Assembly: GCF_033153115.1 (NCBI RefSeq)
Contig: NW_026889766.1
Location: 5,518,001-5,582,000 of the forward strand
Length of the DNA stretch: 64,000 bases
Reading direction: 5' to 3'
Origin: Saccostrea echinata
Lineage: Eukaryota
Part shown: in pieces, positions 1 through 50,729 of the stretch
Numbering within the stretch: the stretch's first letter is position 1
Layout of the letters: the number at the start of each line of letters is the position of its first letter
The notes under the pieces: generated by a model
Told to the model about the DNA's origin: nothing
What the model saw: the letters and a program-made list of their open reading frames with translations, nothing else
Databases searched by the model: none
Position numbers and translations under genes: made by a program

Positions 1-669
1 AAACTACTGAAGTCAATCCAAACCAAGTCAGGATATACACCACAGGACATAGCAGTGACAAGGAATGGACATCTAGTTTATACTGACCCCGATACAGGGA
101 CTGTAAACATAGTGAAGAATGACCAGATACAGGAAGTGATCAGACTACAGGGGTGGAGACCTCGTGGTGTCTGTAGTACCTCCTCTGTTGATCTCCTGGT
201 TACCATGGACAGTGATGATGATAAACAAACAAAAGTTACCCGATACTCTGGCTCCACAGAAAAACAGTCCATTCAGTTTGACAGTGAAGGTAACCCTCTG
301 TATACAACTGGTTACAATAAATATATCACTGAGAACAGGAACCTGGATATCTGCCTGGCTGACAATGGAGCCAGTGCAATAGTGGTGGTTAATAAAGCAG
401 GCAAACTCCGATTTAGATACACTGGTCATCCCTATTTTACCCAGGGATCATTTAATCCACAGGGCATCACAACAGACAGCCAGAGTCAGATCCTGACAGC
501 AGACTATAAAAACCACTGTATCCACATCCTAGATCAGGACGGACAGTTCCTCCGTTCCATTTATAACTGTGATCTACAGGATCCATGGGATTTATGTGTA
601 GACACCAGAGACAACCTCTTTGTGGCTGAATTTGTCAGTGGTAAAATGAAGAAAATCAAATACATGTAA
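1..669 (+). CDS. TRIM-like B-box/coiled-coil/NHL protein, copy 1 (C-terminal NHL propeller; 5' end outside window)
   Basis: Open frame from base 1 ([19 protein letters not shown]...) to KIKYM-TAA at 669. NHL-type repeats ([27 protein letters not shown]) are highly similar to 18916-20574. Confidence 0.88.
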
Positions 670-12201: not shown

Positions 12202-14240
12202 TAGCGCGTTAGAGTGTTTAGTGGTTTGCAGCTTATCTAGGCCAAAATCTGAATTCTGGTAAACAGGATGTGCGCGTTTTCTTGTTGCTGATTTTCAAAC
12301 AAGATTTTTGCATCATATAAGCCAGAAGAATTAGCGCTGGATTATTAACACCTGCTTTGTGAGTATAATTTCATCAGAGATTTCAAAAGATAATTTTTAA
12401 ACATGTTTAAAGTGACTTTTTTGTTACCAGTACATCATTGTATTTTAGTATGCATATGTGTAGCAAAAACAAAGCTATTATGTATTTGAATTGAATACTT
12501 TAGGCAACAACAAATGTACCTCCTTGTCTTATGTTGATCATAACTCAAAATATCTAAGTGTTGAAACATGAAACCATATTGCAGTTAGATGACAGTTCCA
12601 TCAACAGACATGAATTTCATTCGAACTGATTACATATTTCCTGACATACACCCTAAAATATGTCTATTCCATGTTCTTGCAGAATATCAAAACCAACGGT
12701 ATTAAGACCTATGTTAAAATACTCATTTTCACCTTCCCCCTTACCAACAATGACAATTTTGAAGCAGTTTTCCTCACCGAAACACTGTTCGGCCTTTTTT
12801 CTGGAAAGCGCTCTCCTTGGCTGACCGCTGGTGGACAGTTACCACTCGTCCTCCTGTCGAGTTGTTCTTGCGTTCCTCCTGGAACAGTGCAGTGATCTTC
12901 ACACAAACCTCATCCTGAACATAGTGCTGCATCTACAGATATAGAATAGACAACATATATTATTACAAATCAAGAACCCTTTTGAGCATGTACAAATACA
13001 GAGAGTGATAGTCTTATTTTACAATCCTAATGTATGTTAGTGAAACGAGTAAATGTTATTCACGTTTATTTATGACAACTAGCAACTTTTTTGATTAAGG
13101 TAATCTACAATTTGATTTTATTAATTATCAATTTGGTCTCTGACCAGTAGAGCTAAAACAGCAACATTTATCTAATTTAGACATTTTTTAATAAGATTTT
13201 TCAATATGATAAAATTCAAAATAAATTATATATCAGTTACCTTTCTTTTAAACACATTGTATAAATCAATTTAAGATTTTTTTTAAAATGATAAATATCC
13301 TTTATTTTGAGAACTACATGAATGTATAAATGTTTCTTTTTTTTAATACCAAAGGTGTAGATTGAAAAATTATCTGAAAGGCTTATACATTGACAGCTAT
13401 TTAAATCACATGACCTGGATTTAAATCACGAACTGGATATAAATCATATGACCTGGCAAACCAACGTAACGAAGTAGATTATCAGACAGTATTTAGAAAG
13501 CCATATTGATACTACAGGGAATTCGCAGACATTAACTCAATTTTAATATATATCACTTTTTTGCTAGTAAATATCCTCTACCTGAATTAAAAACAAACAT
13601 TTTGAAAAGTCCAAATCCTTCAACAATAAGGAGCGATAATATAATTATGCATGAATATACTGTACATGTGTTAAGAGTTCCAGCACAGGGATTTGAGATC
13701 ACATTTAATTTGTATCTATTACCCCATCAATGATAATTTTCCGATAAAATTCTGGCTTTAGATTGGTTGAGGTCTGTCACGTGAAGCCAGTGTAATACTT
13801 ATATACGGTCACTTGAAAATATTATATACATGATCGTGGTCAATACAGAGTTATCTTTTCTTTTGTTACACTTAGAATAACTCTACTTTCTTAGCTTTTT
13901 AAATTGTTAATAGACAACAGGCTTGCTGATTAATAAACACAAACCCCAGTTAAAGGTGAACTTTTATTTAAAACAAGCTAGCTCTCACAAATATTAACTA
14001 TTCTCCTTGTTTAATTTTCTTCACATTGTCAAGTACTTTCAATGATTTTCATCCTTGATAATTTTGTTTTACATGTCAATCACTTATTATCATGATAATT
14101 TAATATATATTCTTACTTAAAAATATTTTCATTTTTTTTTATTTATTTATATTGTCATTTTGGTTTGCACAAAGCATAAAAAAAAACAAAATTCTCAACA
14201 AAGAATTTATCCTTAACAATTTTGTATTAATTTTTTACAG

Positions 14241-15783
14241 CATCATCGTAACCTGGTCATTGACCCCCTGGACAGAGTTCAAGTACTGTGACCTGTGTCA
14301 AATAGCTGCATTAAATAGTCGCTGTGAACTTTGTCACGTTAACCTACGTAAGGCTTGTGTAAGGAGCATCTCTTTGATTCTTTCAAAAAACACAAGGTTG
14401 TACCTAACAAGCACAGAAAATCTGCTCCTAACTATCGAAAATGTCCAAACCATACCCAGAACCACTGTGAATTTTGCTGTGAGAAATGTGACATTCCTAT
14501 CTGTTCTATCTGCATCTTTTCTGATAACCATCATTGGCATGAATTTATAGATGTTCTGAAAAAGGATTTAGAAAAAGACTTGGAAGAACTAGAGAAAGAA
14601 TTTATCCTGCATATGAAGAAATTACCTTTGATTTAAAGTCTGAAAAAGTAAACTTTCAAATACATTATGAGAAAGTGACAACAGCTGTCACGAAACAAAG
14701 AAAAGACTGGCTCAAAGAAATTAACATCACTGTCACCAAACAGAAATCTCAAATTGATGAGATAAAAAAAGACACCTAGCTGTTCTAAAAATAATAACAG
14801 GAAAAGAAATTAAACAGAATACTACGGATGTAAAACAGAGTATTCTTGATCTGAAGAAAATTCTGGACTCCAATGATGTCTCCCTTACCTCTGCATACAA
14901 ATCCAGGAATGCTGAATTCAGAACTTTACCTCCTAAAGTCAATGTTTCATTAGCTTTATCTTGTCCCCCAGTCAAACCACTGCTTGATAAACCAGAGCTC
15001 GTCACCACCTTAAACACTGGGTATAAATATCTACGCAGCGTTACCTGTATCAGTGATGAAGAAATCTGGACAAGTGGACAAGACAACATCATGAAACTCT
15101 ACAACCTCCAGGATGAACAACTGAAGTCAATCCAAACTAAGTTAGGATACATACCACAGGACATAGCAGTGACAAGGAGTGGACATACAGTTTATACTGA
15201 CCCTGATACAAGACCTGTAAACATAGCAAAGAATAAACAGATATAGAAAGTGATCAGACTACAGGGATGGAAACCTTGTCATGTCTGCAGTACCTCCTCT
15301 GGTGACCTCCTGGTTAGCATGGTTAGTGATGATAAACAATCAAAGGTTTTCCGTTACTCTGGCTCCATAGAAAAACAAACCATTCAGTTTGATACTGAAG
15401 GTAAACCTCTGTATTCATCTGGTTACAGTAGATACATCAGTGAGAACAAGAACCTGGAAATCTTTGCAGCTGACAATGGAGTCAGTGCTGTAGTGGTGGT
15501 TAATCAGGCAGGAAAACTCCGATTTAGATACAATGACCATACCTCTACTACCAAGGGATCTTTTAATTCACTTTGCATCACAACAGACAGACAGAGTCAG
15601 ATCCTGACATCAGACCGCGACAACCACTGTATCCACATACTAGCTCAGGATGGACAGTTCCTTCGTTACATTGATAACTGTGAGGTATACAAACCATGGG
15701 GTTTATGTGTAGACACAGAGACAACCTCAATCTGGCTGAATTTTACAGTGGTAAAGAGAATTTAGGAAGTCAAATACATGTAA
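14241..15783 (+). pseudogene. TRIM-like B-box/CC/NHL copy 2, pseudogene
   Basis: Collinear with copy 3, but the start codon region is deleted, there are several frameshifts, a deletion near 14951, an in-frame TAG near 15244, and the upstream leader-exon donor reads GG instead of GT (13518). Confidence 0.9.
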
Positions 15784-17049
15784 ACACTTCATTGTCGTTG
15801 AGAGTCTATGTGACTGATATGCAATATGAAAAAAAACCCATTACATTGATTATGTGAACATGTACGGATATGTGCAAACGAAAGTGTTTGGACAGTGGGA
15901 AAATACATTTTAAAACCTAATGTTATTCTGTTTCTATTTCAAGAAATACTCTACTTACATTATAAATATTGATTTCTGATTAAACATCATATTATGCAGT
16001 GAATGTTCCAGCTATCAATAATTAACAAGAATTCTCTGATGAGACTGAAGCTCTACTGATATGTACTTATAATTAAGAAAGATGTATTTTGGTAGTCTAC
16101 ATTTGAAAAAAAAAACCTAATCAGCTCAATTAAGTATTAAGCATTATTAAAAGTGGACCAAAGTTGTAGGAGAAGAGTCATTTTGAATGGATTTCAAGGA
16201 AAAATTCTATTTTTAGTATCCAGATAACACCACATGTTACAAACAAAACCAATTTGCATAATGATGTTTCTTAATCTAGTCTACTTGTGTTCTAAGTCTT
16301 ATTAACATTATACATAAACTGTAAAAGAGATAGTGTTTTGAAAGAATTTCAAGGAAATATCTATTTAGAGAAGCCTTGCAATACTGTTTGTCAAAATCAA
16401 AAACTGATACATGGAATTAAGTATCTTAATGTAGTCTGCTTTTCCATGTTTTACTTGAATTAGATTAAAACTGTAGGAGGAGTAGCATTTTGAAAGTTAA
16501 ATGACTAAATTTTCAAACTTCAATTCTTGTAGGAGAAAAAATTATTGGGCCTAGTTTTTCATGGAAATGAGTGGCCACTAGTTCCCCTGTGGCGTTGTTC
16601 TTCCTCCTGGAACAGTGCAGTGATCTTCACACAAACCTCATCCTGAACAATATGCTGCATCTACAGAGTAGAATAGACAAGATATATTATTCTAAATCAG
16701 GGTCCTTTTGGGCATATACAAATACAGAGAGTGATACTATTATTATATATGTCTTACATTATTCTGGTCTCTGACCAGTAGAGCTAAAGACAGCAACTTT
16801 TATCTAATTTAGAATTTTTAAATCAGATTTCTGATAAAATTCAAGATAAATGATATATATATTTTTTTAACACTTTTATTACCTTTCTTACACATTGCAG
16901 AAATCAATTTATGATTTTAATGATTAGATCAATACATCTAGAACATCCTCTATGATGAGAATATCCTGAATGTATAAATCTATCAGTGTTTTACTTAAAT
17001 ACCAAAGTTGCAAGATGAAAAATTATTTAAAAGGCCTATATATTGAAAG

Positions 17050-17132
17050 GTATTTAAATCACATGGCCTGGCAAAAGAACACCAGGAAGTAGATTGTCAG
17101 GCAGCATTTAGGAAGCCTTATTTATACTACAG
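17050..17132 (+). promoter_or_regulatory. Putative core promoter and non-coding leader exon of the TRIM-like gene
   Basis: TATTTAAATCACATG followed by a ~65-nt block ending TACAG|GTAA. The block recurs upstream of copies at 13455-13517, 17870-17935 and 33390-33457, and each coding exon begins at a polypyrimidine-AG acceptor. Confidence 0.55.
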
Positions 17133-18915
17133 GTAAAACTTTTTTTTTCAATTTTAATATATTACACCTTTTTGCTACTAAATATTCTGTACCTGAATTA
17201 AAAACAAAAAATTGTGAAAAGTGGAAATCTTTCAAAAATAAGGAGCAATATAATTATGCATAGTTTTTTTTTTTTTGTATGTGTGTAAGTCTCAGCATGG
17301 GGATTTGAGATCACATTTGTATCTATTACCACACCACTGATGATTTTTTTATGAAATTCTGGCTTTAGATTGGTTGAAGTCTGTCAAATGAAGGCAATCT
17401 CATACTTAAACACGGTCACTTGAAAATATTATATACATGGTGGTATTCATTACAGAGTTATCTTTCCTTTTGTTACACTTAGAATAACTCTTAGTCTTTT
17501 TTTTTTAAATTTTATTAGACAATAGGCTTGCTGATAAATAAACACAAACCCCAGTTAAAGGTGAACTTTATTTAAAATAGGACAGCTATCAAAGATATTA
17601 AGTATTCTCCTTGTTTAATTTTCTTCACATTGTCAAGTACTCTCAATTTTTTTCATCCATGATAATTTTGTTTTACTCGTCAATTAGTTATTATCATGAT
17701 AATTATATATATATATTTAACTACAAAATATTAAACTTTTACTTTTTTATTAATATTGTCATTTTAGTTTGCACAAAGCATAAAAAATAAAATTCTCAAC
17801 AAAGAATTTATATTTCACAATTTTTTTGTAAACAGTATCATCGTTACCTGTCATATGAGAAGACTATTATGGCAAGTCAACACCAGGAAGAAGATTGCCA
17901 GAAAGTATTTATAGGAAGCCATATTGAAACTACAGGTAAGACATTTTTTTTCAAATTGGAAAATATCCCATTTTTGCTACGAAATATCCTCTACTTGAAT
18001 TAAAAACAAAAAATTGTGAAAAGTGGAAATCCTTCAAAAATAAAGAGCAATATAATTATGCATGATTATATTTTACGTGTACATGCCAAGACTATGATGG
18101 TCTCAGCATGGGGTTTTGAAATCACATTTGTATGTATTACCCCATCTCAGGTGATTTTTTGATAAAGACCTGGCTTAAAATTGATTCAAGTTTGCCACGG
18201 TAAGGCAGTGTAATACCTATACACGGTCGCTTGAAAATATGATATACTTGGTTGCGGTCATTACAGAGTTATCTTTTCTTTTTTCACACTTAGAATATCT
18301 CGAGTTTCGTAGGTTTTTTTTCTTAATTTTAATTGTTATAATAGTCAAGAGGCTTACTGAGTGTCTATTGACGAATTAAAAGTAAACTTATGTCAGCAAC
18401 AATCACAAATTATGAAAACATTTTCTCCTAATACTAAAATAAGTTATTACTTCATGAAACACAAAAAACAATGTAATATATACCACAACATGACATCAAA
18501 ACAGGCACTGTATTGGAGAAGTAAAACATATACCGAAAAGAAACAATTAATTTATTCATATGCCCTGACAGGGCATATTAAAAAAACTTAACGTAAAAAA
18601 AAAAAATACGTAAACTCAAACCCATGTTAAAAGTGAACTTATTTAAAACAAGACAGTTCTCGCAAAATTTATTATTAACAATTTCATTTGTTTCTTTCGC
18701 TCAATGATTTTTATCCTTGATGATTTTTTTTTTCACATATTAAGCTCTTCTTACCATGATTATACATATTTCATACTACAAAATATTTCACTTTTACCTA
18801 TCTATTAATATTTTTATTTCAGTTTGCATAAAATAAAATCCTTAACACAGGAATTTTTGCGTTACAATTTTAAATATTTTGCAGCATCACCTAGACTTGG
18901 TCATATGAGAACACT

Positions 18916-20574
18916 ATGATGGATCCCCTGAACAGAGCTCAAGTACTACTCCTCTGCGACTTGTGTCAAAGAGAGGCAGTACAAAGTCATTGTGAACTTT
19001 GTCATATCAACCTGTGTAAAGCCTGTGTAGGGGAGCATCTCTCTGATTTATCCCAAAGACACAAAGTTGTACAATACAAAGACAGAACTTCTACTCCTAA
19101 ATACCCGGAATGTCCAATCCATTCAAAGAAACATTGTGAACTTTACTGTGAGAAATGTGACATTCCTGTCTGTTCTACCTGCATCTCCTCTGATAAACAC
19201 CATGGGCATAAATTTACAGACATCCTGAAAAAAATAAGTTCCAAGAAAAAAGATCTAGAAAAAGACTTGGAAGAACTCGAGAAAAGAATCTATCCTGCAT
19301 ATAGAGAAATTACATTAGATCTAAACTTTCAAAAAGCAAACACTGAAAAACATTATGAGAAACTGACAAATGCTGTCACCAAACAAGGAGAAGACTGGCA
19401 CAGAGAAATTAACATCATTGTCAAGAAAAGGAAATTTGAAATTGATGAGATGAAAACTAAAGGCCTGGTTGCTCTAAATAAACAGGAAAATGAAATAAAA
19501 AAAATTACTTCTGATGTAAAAAAGAGTATTCTTGATCTGAAGAACATTCTTGACTCAAGTGATATCTCCCTAACTTCTGATTACAAATCCAGGAATGCTC
19601 AATTCAGAAGTTTACCTCCTAAAGTCACTGTTTCATTACCAAGTTTCTCTCCTCATCAGATCAACAGAGAACAACTCAATCAAATGTTTGGTTCTCTGTC
19701 AGCATTATCCATTACAAATGAAAAGCATGGCTACACAATGAACACACTAGAAGCGGTATCCTGTCCTCTAGTCAAACCACTGCTTGATGAACCAGAGCTC
19801 ATCACCACCATAGACACTGGTTATAAATACAGTGTTACCTGCCTCAGTGATGAAGAAATCTGGACATGTGGATATGACAAAACTATGGAACTCTACAACC
19901 TCCAGGGTAAACTACTGAAGTCAATCCAAACCAAGTCAGGGAAGATAACACGTGACATAGCAGTGACAAAAAGTGGTGATCTAGTTTATACCGACTCTGA
20001 TACTAGAACTGTAAACATAGTGAAGAATAAACAGATACAGGAAGTGTTCAGACTACAGGGGTGGAAACCTTACAATGTCTGTAGTACCTCTTCGGGTGAC
20101 CTCTTGGTTACCATGGACAGTGATGATAAACAATCAAAGGTTGCCAGATACTCTGGCTCCACAGAGAAACAAACCATTCAGTTTGATAGTGAAGGTAAAA
20201 CTCTCTATTCATCTGGTTACTGTAAATACATCAGTGAGAACAAGAACCTGGATATTTGTGTAGCTGATTGGGGAGCCAGTGCAGTAGTGGTAGTTAATCA
20301 GGCAGGAAAACTCCGATTTAGATACACTGGTCATCCCTCTACTACCAAGGGATCGTTTGATCCCCTCGGCATCACAACAAACATAAAGGGTCAGATCCTG
20401 ACTGCAGACCGTAACAACCACTGTATTCACATCCTAGATCAGGATGGACAGTTTGTCTGTTACATTGATAACTGTGATCTACATCTTCCATGTGGTTTAT
20501 GTGTAGACACCAGAGACAACCTCTTTGTGACTGAGATGAGCAGGGGTAAAGTAAAGAAAATCAAATACATGTAA
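18916..20574 (+). CDS. TRIM-like protein copy 3, intact 552 aa: B-box1, B-box2, coiled coil, NHL beta-propeller; no RING
   Basis: [21 protein letters not shown] (B-box1), [24 protein letters not shown] (B-box2), a heptad-rich helix and six NHL-like repeats. Single coding exon preceded by acceptor ttttgcag at 18884; AATAAA near 20745. Confidence 0.93.
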   Translation: MMDPLNRAQVLLLCDLCQREAVQSHCELCHINLCKACVGEHLSDLSQRHKVVQYKDRTSTPKYPECPIHSKKHCELYCEKCDIPVCSTCISSDKHHGHKFTDILKKISSKKKDLEKDLEELEKRIYPAYREITLDLNFQKANTEKHYEKLTNAVTKQGEDWHREINIIVKKRKFEIDEMKTKGLVALNKQENEIKKITSDVKKSILDLKNILDSSDISLTSDYKSRNAQFRSLPPKVTVSLPSFSPHQINREQLNQMFGSLSALSITNEKHGYTMNTLEAVSCPLVKPLLDEPELITTIDTGYKYSVTCLSDEEIWTCGYDKTMELYNLQGKLLKSIQTKSGKITRDIAVTKSGDLVYTDSDTRTVNIVKNKQIQEVFRLQGWKPYNVCSTSSGDLLVTMDSDDKQSKVARYSGSTEKQTIQFDSEGKTLYSSGYCKYISENKNLDICVADWGASAVVVVNQAGKLRFRYTGHPSTTKGSFDPLGITTNIKGQILTADRNNHCIHILDQDGQFVCYIDNCDLHLPCGLCVDTRDNLFVTEMSRGKVKKIKYM

Positions 20575-21024: not shown

Positions 21025-22650
21025 GAAATATATGTAGATAACGAACAGTATTCAATCTCAAAAGTCCATTAAACATTACAAAATAGGAGCAGAGCAAACA
21101 CGGACCTCCAAAACATCAGAGGTGGGATCAGGTGCCATGGAGGAGTGAGCATCCTTTGCCGACCGGTCACACCCGCCGTTTGCTCCTTGTCATCATCGGG
21201 AAATAATTCAGTGTGTAAATAATGGCCTAACAATTAGTATGAAAAACTTCAGTCAACATTTGACTCAATGATAAATTATATCATTTGCTGACTAGGTCAT
21301 TGTATCGACCATAGAACTTACGAAATGATGACTTTAAACGAGACTGCTGATATTCTTGTTTCATCAACTTGTTTGTCAATAATTAACCTTGTTTTAGAAA
21401 TTGTACATACGTAAAGCATGCTCTTGCGTATCGAATCAACTGAGAGATATAAACCCCGTATGCAGGTGATGAAGGTATATTGCTGCATAAGTAAGGGAAG
21501 TTGACGATTGAAAAGTTAAAGTCATCACGTTTATCATAAAGCTTGGTTATTAGATTAACATTAACGTCTTTTTCAAGTAAAATATCCAAATATGAAACAG
21601 ATGTGTCAGACTCTGTGGTATCTTTTATCTCAAGCTCACCAGGATATATCGTATCGACATAAGAATGGAAATAACCATTGTTAATTGACAATACGTCGTC
21701 GATATATCTAAATGTCGAGTTGAAGCCCAGAGCAAGTATTTTCTTCTTTTCAGGTCTATATTTTGGACAAATTCTGCTTCATATGAATACAAAAAAAGGT
21801 CTGCTAATAACGAGGCGCAATTGGTACCCAGGGAATTCCAATAGATTGTTGGAAGACCTGGTCTCCAAAAACCACATAGATATTGTCAATCAGAAACTCA
21901 AGCATCTGTTTAATGTCAACTTCAGAGTACTTGTGTGTACAATCAAAATGTTTTTTTAACAAAATAATTTTGCAAATGACCAATGACAAGGTAAGTAAAT
22001 TTACGAGTTCCATTTTTATTGAAAAAGCAGCTGTCAATGATATCAAAAAGCCTGGACTTTAATTTATCGTGGGGAATGGTTGTGAATAAAGTTGAAAAGT
22101 CGTAAGTTTTTAGCTGTTGATTTTGGTAAATTCTTGTGATTTCAAAATTTCCAAAAGTTCCTTGGAATTTTTAAGTATCCACATCAGATTTACACCAAAT
22201 ATTGAAAATATTGTTGCACAGTACTCTTGAAGTTTTCCCTTCACTACTGTTAATATCTTAGTGAGGACTAAAGAAAGAGGCTTGGTTGAGCATTTACTGG
22301 AACATGCTATGTACCTTTGTTTGTAAGGATTTTCATGAAGTTTCGGAATCCAATATAAATATGGCAATTCAAATTCATTTTGGTTGTTTGGAATATTAAA
22401 ATATTCAAAAATGACATATGATTTTGAAGAATTTCTTCCTTTGAAAGGGAACTATGAGTATAAGTTGGATTACCACTTGTAGAATTAAATCCAAGTTCCT
22501 CTTAAACACATTTAGTATAATGAGCCTTACAAACAAAGACAATGTTATTACCTGCTAAATGTCAGCAGGGACCAGTACGTACGGACATGTAATCTATCTA
22601 ATTCTTTTTTCACTTCAGGATTACTGAATACAGAAGGATAGATGGTAAAA
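21025..22650 (-). mobile_element. Penelope-like retroelement remnant (reverse transcriptase, frameshifted)
   Basis: Motifs YLYWIPKLH..PYKQRYI, YDFSTL.TTIPH, QQSIGIP, FRYIDD, LYDKRDDFNFSIVNFP..SNIP..PAYGVYISQL.RY. It interrupts a TRIM 3' flank that is continuous in copies 2 and 4. Confidence 0.82.
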
Positions 22651-23659
22651 TGGTAGATGTGTAAAAAAGCCTAATCAGATCAAAACTGTAGGGAGGAGTA
22701 GCATTTAAAAAGAATTCAAAGAAATATATACTTTGTAATAAGCACGAAAGACCAAAATTATAGGAGTGGAATAATTTTGAATGGATTTTAAATAAATGCT
22801 ATTTTTAGTATCCAGACAACACGACTTGTTACAATCAAGACCTATTGAAAATGTACATAAACTGTAAGAGAGGTAGTGTTTTGAAAGAATTTCAAAGAAA
22901 TTTCTATTTCTGGAAACCTTGCAACACTGTTTGTCAATATCAAAAACTGATACATGGAATTAAGGATCTTAATGTAGTCTACTGTTCCATATTTTACTTG
23001 AAATAGATTAAAATTGTAGGAGTAGTAGCATTTTGAAAGTTAAAAGACTGAATGTTCAAACTTCAATTCTCATAGGAGAAAAAATTATTGGACCTAGTTT
23101 TTCATGGAAATGACTTACAAGAAAAAAACATAACCTTTCAATACCCTTTGTCAAAATCAAAAACTTATATATGGAATTATGTATCTAAATGAATCAAAAC
23201 TGTAGGAGGAGTAGATTTTTGAAAATCAAATGGTCAAACTTTAATTCTTGTCAAAGTAAATTTATTGAACAGAGTTATTCATGGAAATGACTTACCACAA
23301 AAAAGTCAATTATACACGTATAACGACTCAGGTTTCCAAATTAAAGCCATTATTTCCTCAACTGTCTGACAAGGTTCTATACTAGATTCTCCATGGTGAA
23401 GGCAATATAGGAATGGATACCACACATCTGTCTTAGCTGATCCTCATACTAAGTGGATTCTAGGTTCCCGTCCAGCAAACTCTTTACCGTATCCAGGAAG
23501 TATGGATAGTATTCCTCAGGCTCATTCTCATCTGTAAACATGGCAACAATCAAAACAAGAGGCCCATGTGTCACATCGCTCACCTGAGCAGATTGGCTAG
23601 GCAAAAGCACAAATCAATTCAGTATTAAAAAGATTACCGGAGGTGGGTGGTTGGGGTTG

Positions 23660-24960
23660 AATTTAAAACTACCTGATGATGCTTCCATGTCAATATAACA
23701 AATGGCTTTGTTGTACTTGAGTAGATTTTTTTTTTAAATTTCCCATATATTCCTTTGTAAAACTTTGATCCCCCATTGTGGCTCCTCCATATCCCAGGGG
23801 TCATTATTTGAACAAAATTGAATTTACACTACCTGAGGATACTTCCATATCAAAATGACTAAACATGATTTTCAGTTCTTGAGAAGAAGATATTTTCCTA
23901 TCTGTTCCTATGTAAAATTTTCGACCCCCCATTGTGGCCTGACCCTATCCCCGGCGGTCATCATTTAACAAAACTTGAATCTACACCCTGAGGATGCTTC
24001 CAAATCAAAATGACTAATCATGGCTTCGCAGTTCTTCAGAAAAGGATATTTTCCTTTATATTTCTATTTAAGACTTTGATCCTCCATTGTGGCTCCACCC
24101 TATCCTCCAGGGGTCACGATTTAAACAAAATATAATCTACACTACCTGAGGATGCTTCCACATAAATATGATTAATCAGGGCTTTGCTATTCCTGAGAAG
24201 AAGATTTTCAAAGATTTTTCCTATATATTTCTATATAAAACTTTCATCCTCCATTGTGGTCCCGCCCTACCCCCGGCGGTCATGATTTGAAATAACTTGA
24301 ATCTACACTACCTGAGGATGCTTCCATATAAATATGACTCATCATGGCTTTGCTGTTCTTGAGAAGATTTTTCCTTAATATTTCTAAGTAAAACTTTAAT
24401 CCTCCATTGTGACCCCGCCCTATCCCCAGGGGTCATGATGTGAACAAACTTGAATCTACACTACCTGAGGATGCTTCCAAATCAAAATGACTAATCATGG
24501 CTTTGCAGTTCTTCAGAAAAAGATATTTTGTTATATATTTCTATTTAAGACTTTGATCCTCCATTGTGGCCCCAACCTACCCCCTGCGGTAATGATTTGA
24601 AATAACTTGAATCTACACTACCTGAGGATGCTTCCATATAAATATGACCAATCAGGGCTTTGCTGTTCCTGAGAAGAAGATTTTCAAAGATTTTTCCTAT
24701 ATATTTCTATGTAAAACTTTGATAGTCCTTTGTGGCCCCGCCCTATCCCCAGGGGTGATGATTTGAACAAACTTGAATCTACACTACTTGAAGACTTCCA
24801 CATGAGTTTCATCTTTCCTGGCCCTGTGGTTCTTGAGAAGAAGATTTTTAAAAGATGCTATTAAATTTTCACTAATTCTTTATTATCTCCCCTTGAAAGA
24901 GGGCGTGACCCTTCATTTGAACAAACTTGAATCCGCTTTACCCAAGGATACTTTGTGGTA
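23660..24960 (+). repeat. Tandem satellite array, ~8 units of 152-166 bp
   Basis: CTACACTACCTGAGGATGCTTCC recurs at about 23670, 23825, 23980, 24137, 24303, 24455, 24613 and 24779. A further fragment lies at ~6495-6800. Confidence 0.9.
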
Positions 24961-26525: not shown

Positions 26526-27228
26526 TATATCTGGAACACTGACATATCCATGCAAAATGAATCCCACAACAATATACTGAATTCAAATTTCAAGCTTAAT
26601 ATCTTGAATGCGAAAAACTTCCCATTTGCTTAAGATTTGACTGTAAGTGTAATATACTAATGTCCTCTAGGTTTCTTACTTGGACCTTTGAGTCTGAGGG
26701 TCACTGCAGTAGATTCCTTTCTGTCTTTCCTACACTGCGCCTCCTCTGCGGCGATTTTAACGGAATATTTGTATATCTTGTACAGGCGTTCACAAAGAAT
26801 TTGATGGAGGTGGAAAAAAAGATACCAGTTATTGTTGACAAAGAACAGAGAATAAACATCATTCTGATTTTTTTTTTAAAAAGTTAGGTTCAAGAAAAAG
26901 TTGCAACTACATGTATGTGCATGTATTAAATAAGAAACCATTTGAATACAACCTATAACATTACTGAAATGACATTACTGGTGGGAATTTACCAAATTCT
27001 GCCTGTACATCCTCCTGCTTCTGGAACAGCTCGGCCACCTGAGAGTAGACTTCAGCCTCGTTAGGGGCTTAAAACCAAGAAACACGATTTGAACGTCACA
27101 AAACATTTCAGTGACCAATCAGTTTTACATTGTCTGTGTTACAAGTCTACTGCCACAAAAGTTTTCATTCTTAGTCTGGTATGGTCTGGCAGTATTTAGA
27201 CCAGGTAAGTATAAACGTCCCTCTATGG

Positions 27229-28097
27229 ACAAGATGTTCCCCAAACAGCTCCCCCACTCCCTTATGGTGCCACATTCCCAAACTTAATTAAAATTAGGCA
27301 ATACTTTTGTATTATAGATGCACACTTTATTTTCCAGACTATTTTAGCGGATAACTACTCCAATACAACCGCACAGGTATTAGCCAATCAAATTTCAGTG
27401 CATGTGCTTGCATATGTTTTCTAGATTTTTCCACATATATTTTCTTTAAGAATCTCACAATATTTACCTACTTTAAAATATCAAAGACTTTCATTAATAA
27501 TAAGCAAGATATAGGTATTAGCTAATCAGAATTCAGCACAGATTGCATGCATGTCTTTGCATTCAGATTTGACAATAGCATAATGTAAGGACACACTACA
27601 CTTAAAGATCTACATTCTAAATTTTGTCCTTTTTTCAAAACTAAGAAAGTTATAGCCACTTAAGTTTCAACCAATCAAATTGCACCACACGGACATGAGC
27701 ACATTTTCAAGAATTCTACATATTTTTTGTAGAACTTTATAATATATGCCCATACTTTAAATTCCGTTGTATTTCGTCAAAAAAGATTTTTTTCTCAGCC
27801 AATCAGAGTGAAGAGCACGTGCATAATCTACTATTTTTGCTAATTTCCTTACATCACCTCGATTACACCACTAATTGAAGTTAATATACTGATGTTCAAA
27901 GCATATCATAAAAAAAAGGAAAGTAAATGCTGTTTCAATTATACCAGTCATCACGTGCAAGCAAAATGACCTTTGTTCCGCATGCCTGTTAACCCTAAAA
28001 GGTTCCATGTCAAATGGATGACACTCGTGGACACAGAAGTTTTCAAAAAGAAAGTGAAAGCAATATATTCCATAACTTCGTTTTGGGAACATATTTG
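27229..28097 (+). mobile_element. HINE/Helentron-like element at the junction between Sin3 duplicate units
   Basis: Starts ACAAGATGTTCCCCAAAC and ends with a hairpin plus GTTT(T)GGGAACAT, an inverted match to the start. Homologues lie at 49455-50676 and, partially, ~9290-10040. Confidence 0.65.
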
Positions 28098-31000
28098 AAA
28101 TAACAGCTATTTTCAGAAGAATGGCTGAAAGTAAAAGTACAAAAGAAGACAACAATTTTGGACTTATTACTTTTAATACACTTTTTCTACACTAAACATA
28201 CACAAAGTGAAATTAGATGACAAACAAAGTGAAAGTAAATGACCACGTTAAGGTAGATGAGAAGGCAGCATCAGTTTGACCAAAAGAGAAATTCATGAAC
28301 AAAAGTGTTACAATGTAATTAATAATAATTGTAATATATAATAACATTACCTTTTACAATCTGTTTGCTCAGTATGGAAAATTCAATGACACACATATTA
28401 AATTGCAATATATAATAAAAATGTAATACTAGAATCTTAAAAGTTGCATTTCTTAAATTTACATTGCAATTCTGAGGTTGATGACTATTTACAAGCAATT
28501 ATTTTACAATAATAAGAGTTATATGTCATATTCCAGTCATATAATTACAGTCCCAGACATTACATGTAATAATGTAATTGTCATGCAGTCTCTATTCACA
28601 AATTGAAGATTTTACTTTACATAGACCATGTAAAAAATGATTAAAAATAATTAACAGTGAAAATAAAAATTTGTGGATCATATAACCACACCCATATGGA
28701 GACAAATTTCACCTGTTTTGAATTTTAAATGATGAGTTATACATTTTTTGCAATTGTCAATAGGGCTCTGATTTAATGCTTTTTACATACCTCGTAAATA
28801 TATGGACAGAAACAAAACTTCGATTTTGCGTGTAGCGAATCTTCTCAAAATATGATCACTCACGGATAACATGAATAAATATACAATGTTTCTACGCATT
28901 ATGCAAAGTCAGAGAAAATGCTGACTTCGAAATAAAGAATATTACACTGATATTAAATGTAATCGAATTTGTAACACAGTGTCACTTCAACAGTTGATGT
29001 TACAATATTTTATGAGATTAAGATATATTTTACTTCCCAGTGACGGAGTACATGATAGATGATGGTCTCAAAGATGTAACGTAATGAAAATATACAAACG
29101 TGAATTATAACTCAGTCCTTTTACAATAACAAACAAACTTTACTGGGGGATTAGGTATTTTTCTACATAATAAAATTTACCTTCCTGAATAAAAAAAAGT
29201 ATATATATCTACAGATTGTTCAACTTAACACAGAAGTATATACATTAAAAATCTTATCTACAACTTCATTTTTAAAATCATATATTAAATCTCTTGTTTC
29301 AGGTACATTAACGTATAATCAATCAGACTGCAATTTTTTTACCAAGGCAAATGCCTGCATGTTGACATGAAATATACAGGGTGGTGTAAATTAATTATAA
29401 AAATCCCCATGATCAAATGACATGCAACCTTTAAGAAATGAAATTCAGCATTGTTTGAAAGTGTCAACCTATATAAATAATGACAATTAGTTGAATGCAC
29501 TATCTCTTTAAATACATCATACAACGCCTATAAAAAGAGAGTTGTTTAAATGCATTCATTCTACCGTGTTTAAATGCATCAGTTTAGTTTCTTCCTATAG
29601 TTAACTTAAGATAATATTAAGCAAGTACTTGTTGAAACTTAGGTTATTATCTATAGATTCATTGGTAACCTCCTTAACTAGTGGCCTATTTCACTGGCTC
29701 AACTGGTTCCCTTGCCTCACTTTTGGTCTCGTATTCATATTCCACTTTGTATTTGTTAAAGATGAAGTAGCGCGTGGCATCCTCGGCATCGCAAGATTCC
29801 TTGGTGGTGGTACACGCTACCAGATCCTCGGTGCGTCCCATCAACCAATCCTCACTGGCCGACTTTTGATTCTCCGTTAGATTTTCCTCCCGCCAGCGAT
29901 TTATCCAAGTGGAGAATTTGTCATGCAGCTTCAGGGACACTATCTTGTGCGACTGTAGTGACAAATACAAAAACTTTGAAAATCATAAAGTAATTGAAAA
30001 TGTCTGAAATAAAGTTGCCAAAATATCTTGCATATCATGGCTATTACAAAATGATGTCAACTATCCTAAAAGAACAACTTAATTTTTAGGGGAAAAAGAT
30101 TACACACAGACAGAATGATGCTTGAGAAACTTCTATCAGAATAGTTCACATAAACTTAAGGGCTCATAAATGTCACAGGTGGTAAAAAGTCAAGTCTCAA
30201 CCTGGAATGGAACCCAGGGCCTCTGGCTTACGTGCCCGAGCTCTAACCACTGATCTAACGAAACCTGGTTTCAGGGGCATAAAACTTGAACCAGCTAACC
30301 TTCGATCTCTGTCTCACTTTTACAAAAGGAATACATACTGAAAAAGTCAGACTGAGATCAAAAGTGATCTCATCTAAGTTTTATGACTTGGAGCTTGACA
30401 TATTGACAGACTCTCACTCACCTGTGAACCCTTTGACATAAACAATACAGAATTTTAAACCGTTCGTGACTTTTGTGCACTTACCCCCCTGCCTTGGTGA
30501 GTGCTGAACGTTTGTATAAGTAATACTCGCTATACACGATTTTGAATGAGTTGACATTAAATTTACACTCAGTGTTGTCCACATCCTCCGTGGATTGCTT
30601 AGGGACCCGGGGATTTCCTCCGTCTCAGTGTCAGACCGAGATTTCTGATTCTTCTAGTGAAGTCACCATTGTCTCACATTTCTATAGCAGATTTAACTTT
30701 AACACCTTCACCCATCTCTTAATTTAATGAAAATCATGCACATGTGCATGTATTAACAGGGTAGTAAAACAATATCTAGATAAGATAAAATAGACTTTAA
30801 AGAGAAACTAGCCCGTTCTTCCAAGGCCTGGCTACATCACCTTAACCTCTGACCTTGAGTCAAGGTCATGACACACTTTTAATTCATTAACAACAACGCA
30901 GATGAATACAAATTTAAGTCCTCATAAACACATGCTCAAGTCTGAGTTCATTCTAATCCAGGGTTCAAAAGTAACACCGTGTATTTTGCAGTTACTATTT

Positions 31001-36271: not shown

Positions 36272-37930
36272 ATGGACCCCCTGGACAGAGCTCAAGTACT
36301 CCTCCTCTGTGACATGTGTCAAAGAGAGGCAGTACAGAGTCATTGTGAACTTTGTCACATTAATCTGTGTAAGGTCTGTGTTGGGGAGCATCTCTCCGAT
36401 TCATCCCAAAGACACAAGGTTGTACACTACAAGCAAAGAAAATCTGCTTCAAACTACCCAGAATGTCCAAACCACACCCAGAACCACTGCGAACATTACT
36501 GTGAGAAATGTGACATTCCTGTTTGTTCTACGTGCATCTCCTCTGATAAACATCAATGGCATACATTTACAGATATTCTGAAAAAACTAACTTCTAAGAA
36601 AAGAGATTTAAAAGAAGACTTGAAAGAACTAAAGAAACAAATCTATCCTGCATATGAAAAAATTACATCGGATTTAAACTCTAAAAAATTAAACGTCGAA
36701 AAACATTATAAGAAACTGACTACAGCTGTCACCAAACATGGAGAAGACTGGCACAGAGAAATTAACATCATTGTCAACAAACAGAAATCTGAAATTGATA
36801 AGATGAAAACTAAACACCTGGCTATTCTAAATAAACAGGAATAGGAAATTAAAAAGATTACGTCTGAAGTAAAACGGAGTATTCTTGATCTGAACAAAAT
36901 ACTACACTCAAATGATGTCTTCCTAACCTCTGCATACATATCCAGGAATGCTGAATTCAAAAGATTACCTCCTAAAGTCAATGATTCATTACTACGTTTT
37001 TTCCCCTATCAGATCAACACATATCAACTACATCAAATGTTTGGTTCTTTGTCAGCATTATCCATAACAACAGAAGAACATGGCTACACGATGGAGACAC
37101 CAGAAGCTGTATCCTGTCCTCCAGTCAAACCACTCATTGATTTACCAGAGCTCATCAGCACCATAAAAACGGGATATAATGTATATAGTGTTACCTGTCT
37201 CAATGATGAAGAAATATGGACATGTGGACATGACAAAATCATGAAACTCTACAGAAAGGGAAAAATACTGATGTCAATCCAAACCAAGTCAGGGAACAAT
37301 CCATATGACATAGCAGTGTCAAGTAGTGGAGATCTAGTTTATACTGATCCTGGTACAAGAACTGTAAACATAGTGAAGAATAAAAAGATACAGGAAGTGT
37401 TCAGACTACAGGGGTGGAAACCTTACAATGTCTGTAGTACCTCCTCTGGTGACCTCTTGGTTACCATGGACAGTGATGATAAACACTCAAAGGTTGTCCG
37501 ATACTCTGGCTCCATAGAGAAACAAACCATTCAGTTTGATAGTGAAGGTAAACCTCTCTATTCATCTGGTTATTATAAATACATCAGTGAGAACAGGAAC
37601 CTGGATATATGTGTGGCTGACAATGAAGGCAAAGCAGTAGTGGTGGTAAATCAGACAGGTAATTTCCGATTTAGATACACTGATCATCCCTCTACTACCA
37701 AGGGCTCATTTGATCCAATCGGCATCACAACAGACAGCCAGAGCCAGATCCTGACAGCAGAGCGTTACAAAACCCGTATCCACATCCTAGATCAGGACGG
37801 ACAGTTCCTCCATTACGTTGATAACAATTATGATCTACAGTTTCCATACGGTTTATGTATAGACACAAGAGATAACCTCTTTGTGGCTGAGTGGAGCAGT
37901 GGTAAAGTGAAGAAACTCAAATATATGTAA
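36272..37930 (+). CDS. TRIM-like copy 4: full-length frame interrupted by a single TAG (36842-36844); B-box/CC ORF 36272-36844 and NHL ORF 37037-37930
   Basis: Both ORFs are in the same frame and the 64 codons between them contain no other stop. Total span is 1659 nt, the same as copy 3. May be a young pseudogene or a split gene. Confidence 0.75.
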
Positions 37931-40977: not shown

Positions 40978-42697
40978 TATAATCTAGACTATATTGGATC
41001 CCCGTTACAGTGCCCAAGACATCCTTTTCTTTGACCTGTGTCAAAAAACTGCATTACAGAGTTATTGTGAACTTTGTCAGATTAACCTGTGTAAGGCCTA
41101 TATAGGGTAGCATCTCTCTGATTCATCCAAAAGAAACAAGATTGTACCATAGAAACACAGAACTTTTGTTTCTAACTACCCAGAATGTCCAAGTCATTCC
41201 AAGAAACATTGTGAACTTTACCGTGAGAAATTTGACATTCCTGTCTGTTCTACCCGCATCTCCTCTGATAAATATCATGGTTTTAAAATTATAGATGTTC
41301 TGAAAAAACTTACTTCCACAAAAAAGGATTTAGAAAAAGACTTGGAAGAACTGGAGAAAAGAAATTTTCCTGCACATGAAGAAATTACATAACATTTAAA
41401 CTCCGAAAAAGTAAACTTTGAAAAACATTATTAGAAACTGACAACAGCTGTTACCAAAGAAGGAGAAAAATGGCACAGAGAAATTAACATCATTGTAAAT
41501 AAACAAAAATCTGAAATTGATGAGATGAAAAAAAAGACACCTGGTTGTTCTAAATAATCAGGGTAAAGAAACTAACATCAACTGTCACTTAACAAGGAGA
41601 AGACTGGCACATTGAAATTAACATCATTGTCAACAAACAGAAATCTGAAATTGATAAGATGAAAAATAAACACTTGTCTGTTCTAAATAAACAGGAAAAA
41701 GAAATTAAAGAGATTACGTCTGAAGTAAAACGGAGTATTCTTAATCTGAAGAAAATACTGGACTCCAATGATGTCTCCCTAACCTCTGCTTACAAATCCA
41801 AGAATGCTGAATTCAGAAGTCCCCCCCCCCCATAAAGTCAATGTTTCATTACCAAGTTTCTCTTCTCATCAAATCAACAAAGAACAGCTTCATTGAATGC
41901 ATGGTTCTCTGTCAGCATTATCCATTACAACAGAAAAACATCGCTACACAAAAAAGACACCAGAATCTGTATCCTGTCCTCCAATCAAACCACTAATTGA
42001 TGAACCATAGCTCGTCAACACCATAGATACGGGGTATAATCTATACAGTGTTACCTGTCTCAGTGATGAAGAAATCTGGGCACGTGGAATTGACAAAATC
42101 ATGAAACTCTACATCCTTCAGGGCAAACTACTGAAGTCAATCCAAACCAAGTCAGGGAACATAGCAGATGACATAGCAGTGACAACGAGCGGAGATCAAG
42201 TTTATACTGACCCTAATACAAGAACTGTAAACATAATGAAGAATAGACAGATACAGGAATTGATCAGACTACAGGGCTGGAAACCTTACAATATCTGTAT
42301 TACCTCCTCTGATGATCTCCTGGTTACCATAGACAGTGATGATAAACAATTAAAGGTGGTTCGTTACTCTGGATCCACAGGGAAGCAAACCCTTCAGTTT
42401 AATCATGAAGGTAAACCTCTGTATCATCTGGTTATATTAAACGCAGTGAGAACCGGAACCTGAATATATGTGTGGCTGACCTAGGAACCAGTGCAATAGT
42501 GGTGATGATTAATCAGAAAGGAAAACTCAGATTTAGATACACTAGTCATCCCTCTACTACCAAGGAAACATTTGATCTAGTCGGCATCATAACAGACAGC
42601 CAAAGTCAGATCCTGACATCAGACCGTAACAACAACTGTATCCACATCCTAGATCAGGACGGACAGTCTTCCGTTCCATTGATAACTGTGATCTACA
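40978..42697 (+). pseudogene. TRIM-like copy 5, pseudogene, 3' truncated
   Basis: No ATG at the homologous start, multiple stops and frameshifts, an internal duplication of ~130 bp of coiled-coil sequence (~41440-41570 and ~41580-41710), and truncation after GATCTACA where it joins the intron of copy 6. Confidence 0.9.
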
Positions 42698-43050
42698 CAC
42701 ATTTGTATCTAGAACCCAACTGATGATTTTTTATGAAATTCTGGCTTAAGTTTGGTTAAAGTCTGTCACGTGGAGGCATGTGTATACGGTCACTTGAAAA
42801 TCAAAAAATGCTCACGGTCAATTCATAGTTGTCTCATCTTTTGTAACACTTAGAACAACTCAAGTTCCTTAGTTTTCCACTTGTTATTAGACAAGAGGCT
42901 TGCCGAGTTTCTGTTGATAATTATCTGTTGACAAATACAAAGTTAACAAACGTCACGCATAAAAATAAAATCCTCAAAAAAGAAATTAAACTTGACAATT
43001 TTTAATTTTTGCACAGTATCATCTAAACTTGGTCATGTGAGTAGACTATT

Positions 43051-44718
43051 ATGGACCCCTTGGACAGAGCTCAAGTACTCCTCCTCTGTGACCTGTGTCA
43101 TTTTAAGAGCTGTATTACAGAATCATTGTGAACTTTGTCAGATTAATCTGCGTAAGACCTGTGTTGGGGAGTATCTCTCTGATTCACCCAAAAGACACAA
43201 GGTTGTACCCTACAAGCACAAAAAATCTGCTCCTAACAACCCAGAATATCCAAACCACACCCAGAATCACTGCAAACATTACTGTGAAAAATGTGATATT
43301 CCTGTTTGTTCTACGTGCATCTTCTCTGATAAACATCATGGGCATAAATTTACAAATGTTCTGAAAAAATAATTTCTAAGAAAAAAGATTTAGAAGAAGA
43401 CTTGGAAGAACTAGAAAAACGAATCTATCCTGCATATGAAGAAATTACGTTGGATTTAAACTCTGAAAAGTAAACTTCGAAAAACATTATGAGAAACTGA
43501 CTACAGCTGTCACTAAACAAGGAGAAGACTGGCACAGAGAAATTAACATTATTGTCAACAAACAAAAATCTGAAATTGATGAGATGAAAACGAAACAACT
43601 GACTGTTCTAAATAAACAGGAAAAAGAAACTGAAAAGACTACTTATGATGTAAAACAGATCATTCTTAATCTGAAGAAAATATTGGACTCCAATGATTTC
43701 TCCCTAACCTCTGCTTACAAATCCAGGAATGATGAATTCAGAAGTTTAACTCCTGAAGTCAATGTTTCGTTACCAAGTTTCTCTCCTCGTCAGATCAACA
43801 GCGAACAGCTCCATGAAATGTTTGGTTCTCTATCAGCATTATCCATAACAGAAGAAAATCATGGCTACACAATAAAGACACCACAAGCTGTATCATTCCT
43901 GCAGTCAAACCACTGCTTGATGAACCAGAGTTCATCACCACCATAAATACTGGGTATGATCTGATCAGTGTTGCCTGTCTCAGTGTTGAAGAAATCGGGA
44001 CACGTGGAATTGACAAAATCATGAAACGCTACGACCTCCAGGGTAAACTACTGAAGTCAATCCAAACCAAGTCAGGGAATATACCATCTGACATGGCAGT
44101 GACAAGAAATGGAGATTTAGTTTATACTGACCCTGATACAAGAACTGTAAACATAGTGAAGAATAAAAGATACATGGAGTCATCAGACTACAAGGGTGGA
44201 AACCTTACAATGTCTTTAGTACCTCCTCTGATGACCTCCTGGTTACCATGGTCAGTGATAATGATAATCAATCAAAAAGTTGTCCGTTATTCTGGCTCCA
44301 CAGAGAAACAAGCCATTCAGATTGATGGTGAAGGTAAACCTCTGTATTCATCTGGATATATCAAATACATCAGTGAGAACAGAAATCTAGAAATCTGTGT
44401 GGCTGACAATCGAGTCAATGCAGCAGTGGTGGTTAATCAAGCAGGAAACTCACAGATTTAGATACACTGGTCATCTCTCTACTCACAAGGGAGCGTTCAG
44501 ACTAGTCGGCATCACAACGGACAGTCAAGGTCTGATCCTGACAGCAGACAGTAACAACCACTGTATATATCTACATCCTAGATCAGGATAGACAGTTCCT
44601 CCGTTACATCCATAACTGTGATATACAGTATCCATGTGGTTTATGTGTAGATACCAGAGAGTACCTCTTTGTGGCTGAATGGGTCAGTGGTAAAGTGAAG
44701 AAAATCAAATATATGTAA
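43051..44718 (+). pseudogene. TRIM-like copy 6, frameshifted pseudogene
   Basis: Runs from ATGGACCCC to ATATATGTAA and is full length, but is broken over several ORFs (42992, 43584, 44021, 44397) by frameshifts. It lacks the upstream leader exon. Confidence 0.9.
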
Positions 44719-50676: not shown

Positions 50677-50729
50677 AAATAACACTAAGCTATTTTCAGA
50701 AGAATGGCTTAAAATGAAAGTACAAAAGA

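Follow-up and report, generated by a model that had tools for sequence, protein, structure and literature searches.

What is being diversified in a tandem family of TRIM-like oyster genes, and what might the diversification serve? The question is raised by a 64,000-nucleotide stretch of the Saccostrea echinata genome (contig NW_026889766.1, positions 5,518,001 to 5,582,000; hereafter the window), in which a translated search found six homologous gene copies, c1 to c6, all on the plus strand. A previous sequence-only reading had counted six paralogues with variable spots in an NHL propeller. Six copies are indeed present, and only c3 is intact; c1 is cut at the window start, and c2, c4, c5 and c6 are broken (Table 1). 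The family is RING-less, with B-boxes, a coiled coil and an NHL propeller, and is TRIM-like by its B-boxes. Among the window copies, selection above neutral was confined to sites in the propeller, and about 29 such sites are predicted to form the propeller's top face. On balance we think it probable that the family supplies a varied set of cytosolic adaptors that recognise ligands derived from pathogens, and these ligands are more likely to be protein surfaces than RNA; the immune role and the ligand are what we infer from this pattern.

Pfam zf-B_box (PF00643) matched the c3 protein in two stretches. The B-box is the defining TRIM domain, and we assigned the types of the two boxes by their order, following PMC2533329 (here and below, published papers are cited from excerpts). 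Among 102 aligned sequences, C81, C86, C89, H95 and H98 of B-box2 were invariant. The coiled coil was assigned by a profile match to the B-box/coiled-coil structures of TRIM5, TRIM72 and TRIM28. An AlphaFold2 model of c3 consists of a long coiled coil and a 24-strand, six-bladed propeller with a predicted local distance difference test (pLDDT) mostly above 90 by block; its domain packing is unreliable because the overall predicted template modelling score is 0.51. The first 15 Foldseek matches were all TRIM-NHL domains, the best being the NHL domain of TRIM2 (PDB 7b96; E-value 2e-18, 19% identity). Pfam and Foldseek found no B30.2/PRY-SPRY domain in the c3 protein, which has NHL in its place, and there was no Pfam match to a filamin domain between the coiled coil and NHL. 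That the family lacks a RING, as the sequence-only reading had stated, agrees with our searches, which found no Pfam RING match in the c3 protein and no RING-like motif in the six frames of the whole window.

We defined the variable sites on proteins from outside the window to avoid circularity. The c3 protein was aligned with 101 of 120 matches (the other 19, mostly long double-unit or partial models, were dropped), entropy was computed on 85 Saccostrea proteins, and positions above 2 bits were called hypervariable. Of 260 propeller positions, 29 were hypervariable, including 9 above 3 bits; no position outside the propeller exceeded 3 bits. The top face of an NHL propeller is made of the b-c and d-a loops (PMC4015489). 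Hypervariable sites occupied 20 of 72 top-loop positions, 0 of 47 bottom-loop positions (Fisher p 2e-5) and 9 of 138 strand positions, and all nine strand sites were at the top ends, where strand a starts or strand b finishes. This assignment to the top face is topological and uses strict predicted strand limits.

The sites also keep a register from blade to blade. The residue after the strand-b closer was hypervariable in 6 of 6 blades, and the two residues flanking the conserved proline before strand a were each hypervariable in 5 of 6. Among the Saccostrea proteins, mean pairwise identity was 22% at the 29 sites, 82% in bottom loops and 84% in strand cores. Variation in loop length was found mostly in four top loops, and the bottom loops were almost fixed. 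The linker between the coiled coil and NHL, 57 residues that are partly of low confidence in the model, contained no hypervariable position (0/57), so floppiness alone is no explanation. In a distant check with 91 representatives (from 150 listed), site entropy correlated with the Saccostrea profile (rank correlation 0.85). The variable sites had earlier been placed on the binding face; they lie on the predicted top face, at the repeat positions of RNA-binding residues of Brat, and by topology are neither scattered nor buried.

All of the variable motifs listed earlier were found in the codon alignment, namely G[YTPQ/YIPQ/KITR/NNPY/NIAD/NIPS]D, AD[NGAS/NGVS/WGAS/NEGK/LGTS/NRVN]A, F[NPQG/NSLC/DPLG/DPIG/DLVG/RLVG]I, E[FVS/FYS/MSR/WSS/WVS]GK and those of blade 6, together with the blade-1 loop with its in-frame indels. 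Equally variable spots at residues 320, 361-362, 434-436 and 499-502 had been missed. The framework, described as nearly invariant, is better called conserved: amino-acid identity was 76% among the six copies and 81% among the three with an open propeller frame. Propeller DNA identity between window copies was 82-87%.

Selection was examined with purpose-written codon models, not PAML (GY94-type, F3x4, four beta classes, naive empirical Bayes; branch lengths in the site models scaled from the first fit). Masking in the window tests removed stop codons and frameshift codons, codons 303-304 and the part of c5 after 522. In a fixed-site test on the six copies, omega (the ratio of nonsynonymous to synonymous rates) was 2.50 at 28 outside-defined sites and 0.56 at the 229 others (p 4e-8). 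With double mutations allowed, it was 2.33 (p 4e-6), and in the three open-frame copies it was 2.70 against 0.42 (p 3.5e-5). The window copies were 79-90% identical to their nearest outside relatives in the framework and 11-37% identical at the hypervariable sites; the defining site set is therefore largely independent of the window. CpG hypermutability was rejected as the cause, as the signal stayed after CpG-touching codons were removed (omega 3.0, p 1.5e-7).

Site models, which need no outside definition of the sites, pointed to the same places. For the window propeller, M8 was favoured over M8a with p 1.6e-4 (0.013 with double hits); 10 of the 11 sites with a posterior above 0.5 were on the top face and 9 were among the 29. 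The same comparison gave no positive selection in residues 10-292 (B-boxes, coiled coil and linker) of the window copies. A model-free comparison of the six copies gave 61% identity at codon positions 1 and 2 of the hypervariable codons, 83% at four-fold sites and 88% in the rest of the propeller.

Variability was also seen in the coiled coil (19216-19620, residues 103-235), where 14 of 133 positions exceeded 2 bits in the 85 proteins, the top one being residue 141 (2.9 bits). Variable coiled-coil positions could affect the pairing of paralogues; the window copies gave no signal of positive selection there.

For replication, we used 20 of 60 metagenome-contig loci, those whose open frame spans 246 propeller residues or more; they are 44-64% identical to c3. 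The alignment had 221 columns, with 24 indel-prone columns and the residues before 306 excluded. M8 was again favoured over M8a (p 7e-12; still 2e-4 with double hits), and 16 of 17 flagged sites were both on the top face and among the 29. In pairs of Saccostrea proteins, identity at the 29 sites was 19-25% at any framework identity from 60 to 95%; even paralogues 90-95% alike in framework shared only 25% at these sites. This constancy suggests that the face is remodelled soon after duplication. The window displays tandem duplication with frequent gene death (birth and death) in this family.

Widespread gene conversion, a possible source of such a pattern, was not found: 1 of 15 pairs was significant in a propeller test and 0 of 10 in a whole-gene test, and no near-identical propeller segments were found between otherwise divergent proteins. 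The one significant pair was c3-c4, with a possible conversion tract at codons 364-390 (corrected p 0.01). At this tract (20005-20085), which spans one top loop, c3 and c4 are identical over 26 polymorphic sites.

Several results weigh against reading the family as a selected repertoire of pathogen receptors. The chief one comes from the 20 divergent loci, where the fixed-site test with double mutations gave an omega of 1.12 (p 0.18). When the 28 codons were given a separate synonymous rate (dS), the window test fell to p 0.048 with six copies and to 0.21 with three. The top loops as a whole class had an omega of 1.09 in the window and 0.58 in the 20 loci, so the diversifying selection proposed earlier stands for a subset of sites and not for the loops as a class. 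Polymorphism in five near-identical clusters was not enriched at the variable sites (2/141 compared with 30/1131), which gives no sign of ongoing within-locus diversification in those clusters; they represent distant subfamilies, and clustering at 90% hides divergent alleles. As to function, the poly(A) reads described below match too loosely to place expression on c3 itself, and the contrasts from disease studies on Dermo (Perkinsus), also described below, are between families and not of infection induction; they are weak and mixed, and may reflect genotype. Finally, the Tyr/Trp/Arg/His make-up of the variable sites would suit base-stacking, nucleic-acid-binding surfaces as well.

The pattern might instead be explained by relaxed constraint or artefact, with top loops left unconstrained in a decaying family and an omega above 1 produced by multi-nucleotide mutations, misalignment or gene conversion. 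Four of the six copies are broken, the omega of the top-loop class is near 1, the fixed-site signal of the divergent loci vanishes under the double-hit model, and there is the possible c3-c4 tract. This explanation is already disfavoured, and we regard it as very unlikely. Replacement positions in the model-free comparison are 39% different, compared with 17% at four-fold sites, and conservation holds in the bottom loops and in the floppy linker. Three protein or DNA sets, and also the 91 distant representatives, single out the same sites. Synonymous divergence at the 28 codons was not raised in the window copies (p 0.35), and the lack of excess polymorphism among alleles argues against a mutation hotspot.

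If the top face is selected for binding, what does it bind? The residues enriched at the 29 sites are Tyr (13.9%, compared with 4.1% overall), Trp (3.9% and 0.8%) and Arg (8.3% and 3.7%), and also Asn, Gly and His. Such a make-up resembles that of antibody paratopes. By a crude residue count, the net charge of the top loops had a mean of -0.5 and a range of -10 to +6; it was at least +3 in 15 of 86 proteins and zero or negative in 46.

These data bear on the possibility that the proteins are RNA readers like Brat, the top face of each paralogue recognising a different foreign RNA motif (in viral or transposon transcripts) and the protein repressing or destabilising it. In Brat, H802, Y829, R847 and R875 are top-surface residues whose mutation impairs RNA binding (PMC4015489). 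In a profile alignment to Brat (PDB 1q7f; with an offset of 751, the numbering recovers eight residues that PMC4015489 names), they align to S455, D482, R499 and C526 of c3, hypervariable sites with entropies of 2.9, 2.9, 3.3 and 2.0 bits; R837 on the bottom surface of Brat aligns within a conserved a-b loop of c3. The match holds repeat to repeat only, and blade-to-blade correspondence is not proven. Brat is RING-less too (PMC9070667), aromatic and Arg residues are enriched at the variable sites, and the RNA-binding surfaces of NHL domains differ widely among subfamilies (PMC5908797). However, the top of published RNA-binding NHL domains carries positive charge (PMC4015489, PMC9070667), and most top-loop charges counted here were lower than that of Brat, about +3 over five blades when counted by eye. 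The top face had no conserved basic residue and, in the 85 Saccostrea proteins, no conserved RNA-contact residues of the Brat/LIN-41 type. By the residue count, a basic top face is not a property of the family and is possible for some members. The nearest structures are those of TRIM2/3, for which Brat-like RNA binding has been judged unlikely, and the NHL domain of TRIM2 binds myosin V (PMC9634614). We therefore consider RNA readers unlikely, and the viral-RNA sensing put forward in the sequence-only reading gained no specific support.

Like the oyster family, Drosophila Brat (PDB 1q7f, 4zlr) combines the absence of a RING with an NHL propeller, and its RNA-binding residues are at the repeat positions of the hypervariable sites. 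Brat recognises a defined RNA motif through an electropositive top face, whereas in the oyster family those positions vary freely and charge differs between paralogues. The TRIM-NHL class VII proteins (human TRIM2/TRIM3, TRIM71/LIN-41 and TRIM32) (PDB 7b96, 7qrw, 8j72) share the B-box, the coiled coil and the C-terminal six-bladed NHL propeller, and the best sequence and fold matches are to TRIM2/3. In contrast to them, the oyster family is only about 19% identical, lacks RING and filamin, and is a large radiation with a non-conserved top face; class VII surfaces are conserved, and canonical TRIM-NHL families have three to five members per genome (PMC4015489).

The closest working analogue is the finTRIM, btr and trim35/hltr families of fish, with TRIM5-alpha (PMC3137616). 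These are likewise expanded and have hypervariable, positively selected loops in a C-terminal ligand-binding domain; the B30.2 loops of the fish proteins have been read as virus sensing or restriction, with the same entropy cut-off (>2 bits) and site-model logic as here (PMC3137616). The oyster family would work like finTRIM but is not finTRIM: finTRIM-type families carry a RING and B30.2/PRY-SPRY, whereas this one has no RING, an NHL propeller, and variable positions in register across six blades. The F-box and MATH-BTB adaptors of nematodes are another comparison. They are large birth-and-death families of cytosolic proteins with positive selection on the substrate-binding part, and targeting of foreign proteins has been proposed for them; their domains are different and they have a known cullin-ligase link.

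Under the reading that we favour, selection would favour a new specificity in every fresh duplicate, and the duplicate would be lost once it ceased to be useful. Dimerisation through the coiled coil may let two propellers bind together with avidity, and the B-boxes may drive higher-order assembly on a repetitive target, as suggested by the biology of TRIM proteins such as TRIM5-alpha and finTRIM. Having no RING, the bound protein might coat or sequester its target, or recruit an effector in trans, such as a RING-bearing partner or autophagy; in a few relatives, a fused HEPN domain could supply the effector. The cytosolic location, the pathogen ligand and the effector in trans are the steps that we infer.

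The target of selection might also not be a pathogen. The proteins could be adaptors in another arms race, against the proteins of selfish elements, or could act in self-recognition as gamete or allorecognition factors. The sequence evidence shows selection for new specificities and not its driver, the copies lie among repeats and reverse-transcriptase-like fragments, and the myosin V bound by the TRIM2 NHL domain is an endogenous protein (PMC9634614). We think such a role quite unlikely. Surface recognition fits poorly with the c3 sequence and model, in which no signal peptide or membrane helix is apparent, although no dedicated predictor was run. Typical allorecognition loci show excess allelic polymorphism, and none was found at the variable sites in the five clusters.

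Data on expression and disease come from other oysters. For a related oyster, two runs contain poly(A) reads over the coding region, mostly at less than 95% identity; relatives of c3 are thus transcribed in that oyster. Published work describes 79 TRIM transcripts, mainly TRIM2/3-like, in a module linked to Dermo tolerance (PMC9892467). By accession look-up in four supplements of that paper, 2 of 11 verified C. virginica relatives were in the Dermo differential-expression tables; one was up in tolerant family 89 only and the other in tolerant family 84 and sensitive family 120. A look-up by gene symbol in the same supplements gave no match. Induction of TRIM genes by priming with polyinosinic:polycytidylic acid (poly(I:C)) or by ostreid herpesvirus 1 (OsHV-1) is reported, in passages that give no domain detail, in PMC7064767 and in preprint 10.64898/2026.05.15.723513. 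In public sequencing runs, at most 14% of the 31-mers of c3 were found in any run; the index may cover the species poorly, or else this copy may be rare or private.

A wider version of the reading would make the family the invertebrate counterpart of the restriction factors TRIM5 and finTRIM. Oysters, and possibly other marine invertebrates, would have a germline repertoire of hundreds of cytosolic antibody-like NHL receptors. On a fixed scaffold, every blade would contribute about five variable residues to a six-fold paratope; the receptors would be dimerised and polymerised by the B-box/coiled-coil stem, with effectors in trans or in an occasional HEPN nuclease-like fusion. The repertoire would be a main specificity determinant of resistance to OsHV-1, Perkinsus or Bonamia. 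We regard this version as doubtful and offer it tentatively. Studies of oyster disease treat dozens of 'TRIM' transcripts as RING E3 ligases of unknown action; if many belong to this family, they are RING-less with a fast-diversifying binding face. They would then provide a testable model of intracellular pathogen recognition in an animal without adaptive immunity, and the NHL fold of conserved developmental RNA regulators would have been redeployed as a variable receptor. The 29 positions indicate what to swap or mutate for specificity, and which haplotypes to type in breeding lines.

In the literature searched, which mostly does not extend to subscription journals, we found no description of a positively selected NHL face in oyster TRIM-like genes, nor any account of the architecture of the oyster proteins that NCBI annotates under TRIM names. 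A term search of the Saccostrea, Ostrea and Mytilus genome papers found no relevant passage, and PMC8382680 lists one bivalve-expanded B-box orthogroup.

A protein search with c3 scored 8000 candidates, of which 3185 were homologous, and all 120 listed were from oysters. Single-unit relatives among the matches listed are 62-79% identical to c3 in Saccostrea, Ostrea, Crassostrea and Magallana, the best being Saccostrea proteins at 79%; most longer matches are two units within one gene model. Oyster proteins that NCBI calls TRIM2-like, TRIM3-like, TRIM36-like, TRIM71-like or uncharacterized belong to this same family, the names being automatic. The 60 metagenome-contig loci were found by an alignment-based scan and none by a single-protein scan, and no relative was found in viral contigs.

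Absence of the RING extends to these relatives: no RING family was found in 120 and 49 listed matches or in 40 scanned representatives, many of which are named E3 ligases by NCBI. More distant mollusc and echinoderm clusters of the Atlas carry a RING, so it was likely lost from a RING-bearing ancestor. An upstream RING exon for the gene was considered and rejected, given the in-frame stops before the ATG and the lack of a RING motif in the window. Because one such stop is between the acceptor-like site and the ATG (Table 1), a RING exon cannot be spliced in frame via that acceptor; c4 and c6 have a TAA at the matching place. No splice joint at the 5' end of the gene was seen in reads from four mapped runs, which are mostly less than 95% alike.

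Other domains are joined to the unit in some gene models. Two C. virginica proteins, XP_022316097 and XP_022316885, have HEPN_DZIP3 upstream of a B-box/coiled-coil/NHL unit, and their N-terminal parts are 58-68% identical; these joins are possibly sensor-effector fusions or possibly products of annotation. Single gene models in S. cucullata and M. gigas join a propeller to Ig-Roc-COR or PTB domains and may be annotation fusions.

Table 1. Gene copies in the window, and domains and hypervariable sites of c3 (window positions; aa, amino-acid residue of c3).
Feature	Position	Strand	Description
c1	1..669	+	3' part, equivalent to aa 332-552; frame open; truncated by window start
c2	14241..15783	+	pseudogene: start codon deleted, frameshifts, linker deletion, stop at 15244-15246
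c3	18916..20574	+	intact open reading frame (ORF) of 552 aa, single coding exon; B-box1, B-box2, coiled coil, linker, NHL propeller
c4	36272..37930	+	full length, one in-frame TAG at 36842-36844; propeller frame open
c5	40991..42697	+	pseudogene: several stops, frameshifts, internal duplication of about 134 nt in coiled coil, last blade replaced
c6	43051..44718	+	pseudogene: several frameshifts
Acceptor-like site	18870..18915	+	pyrimidine-rich, ends 18884; in-frame stop 18892-18894 just 5' of c3 ATG; putative splice use, from sequence
B-box1	18955..19062	+	aa 14-49; C14 C17 C26 C29 C34 C37 H41 H49; ligands nearly invariant
B-box2	19111..19209	+	aa 66-98; Pfam PF00643 E-value 6e-10 at 62-102
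Coiled coil	19216..19605	+	predicted helices aa 101-213 and 217-230, AlphaFold2 model
NHL propeller	19795..20565	+	aa 294-550; six-bladed, velcro closure; PF01436 E-value 2e-9
Blade 1 sites	19825..19875	+	aa 304, 305 (d-a loop, indels), 318, 320 (b-c turn)
Blade 2 sites	19945..20001	+	aa 344, 346, 361, 362
Blade 3 sites	20065..20118	+	aa 384, 386, 387, 401
Blade 4 sites	20215..20280	+	aa 434-436 (indels), 452, 453, 455; 455 aligns to Brat H802
Blade 5 sites	20350..20421	+	aa 479, 482, 484, 499, 500, 502; 482 aligns to Brat Y829, 499 to Brat R847
Blade 6 sites	20482..20541	+	aa 523, 524, 526, 541, 542; 526 aligns to Brat R875

Around the copies, the window contains further traces of duplication. 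An orphan remnant at 17539-17872, consisting of the intron end and the first codons of the gene, is a seventh remnant. An upstream block is duplicated (13134-14260 and 16765-17854), with more upstream similarity at 33174-34071 and 42698-42923.

Other features are repeats and ORF pieces. A 2.8-kb repeat (27433-30170 and 49968-52761, 85% identity), with a third partial copy at 9457-11112, is probably a transposable element, and a tandem array with a unit of about 160 bases lies at 23657-24852. On the minus strand, 6111-6479 has a weak match to the PAH domain (E-value 0.028), a Sin3-like fragment in repeated sequence with similar DNA at 48899-49460 and 26984-27234. Two ORF pieces at 21383-22451 on the minus strand, with no Pfam match, have a motif that we take to mark the remains of a reverse-transcriptase retroelement. 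An acidic ORF piece at 56150-56479, also on the minus strand and with no Pfam match, is, by its resemblance, perhaps an exon of a chromatin-remodeller gene.

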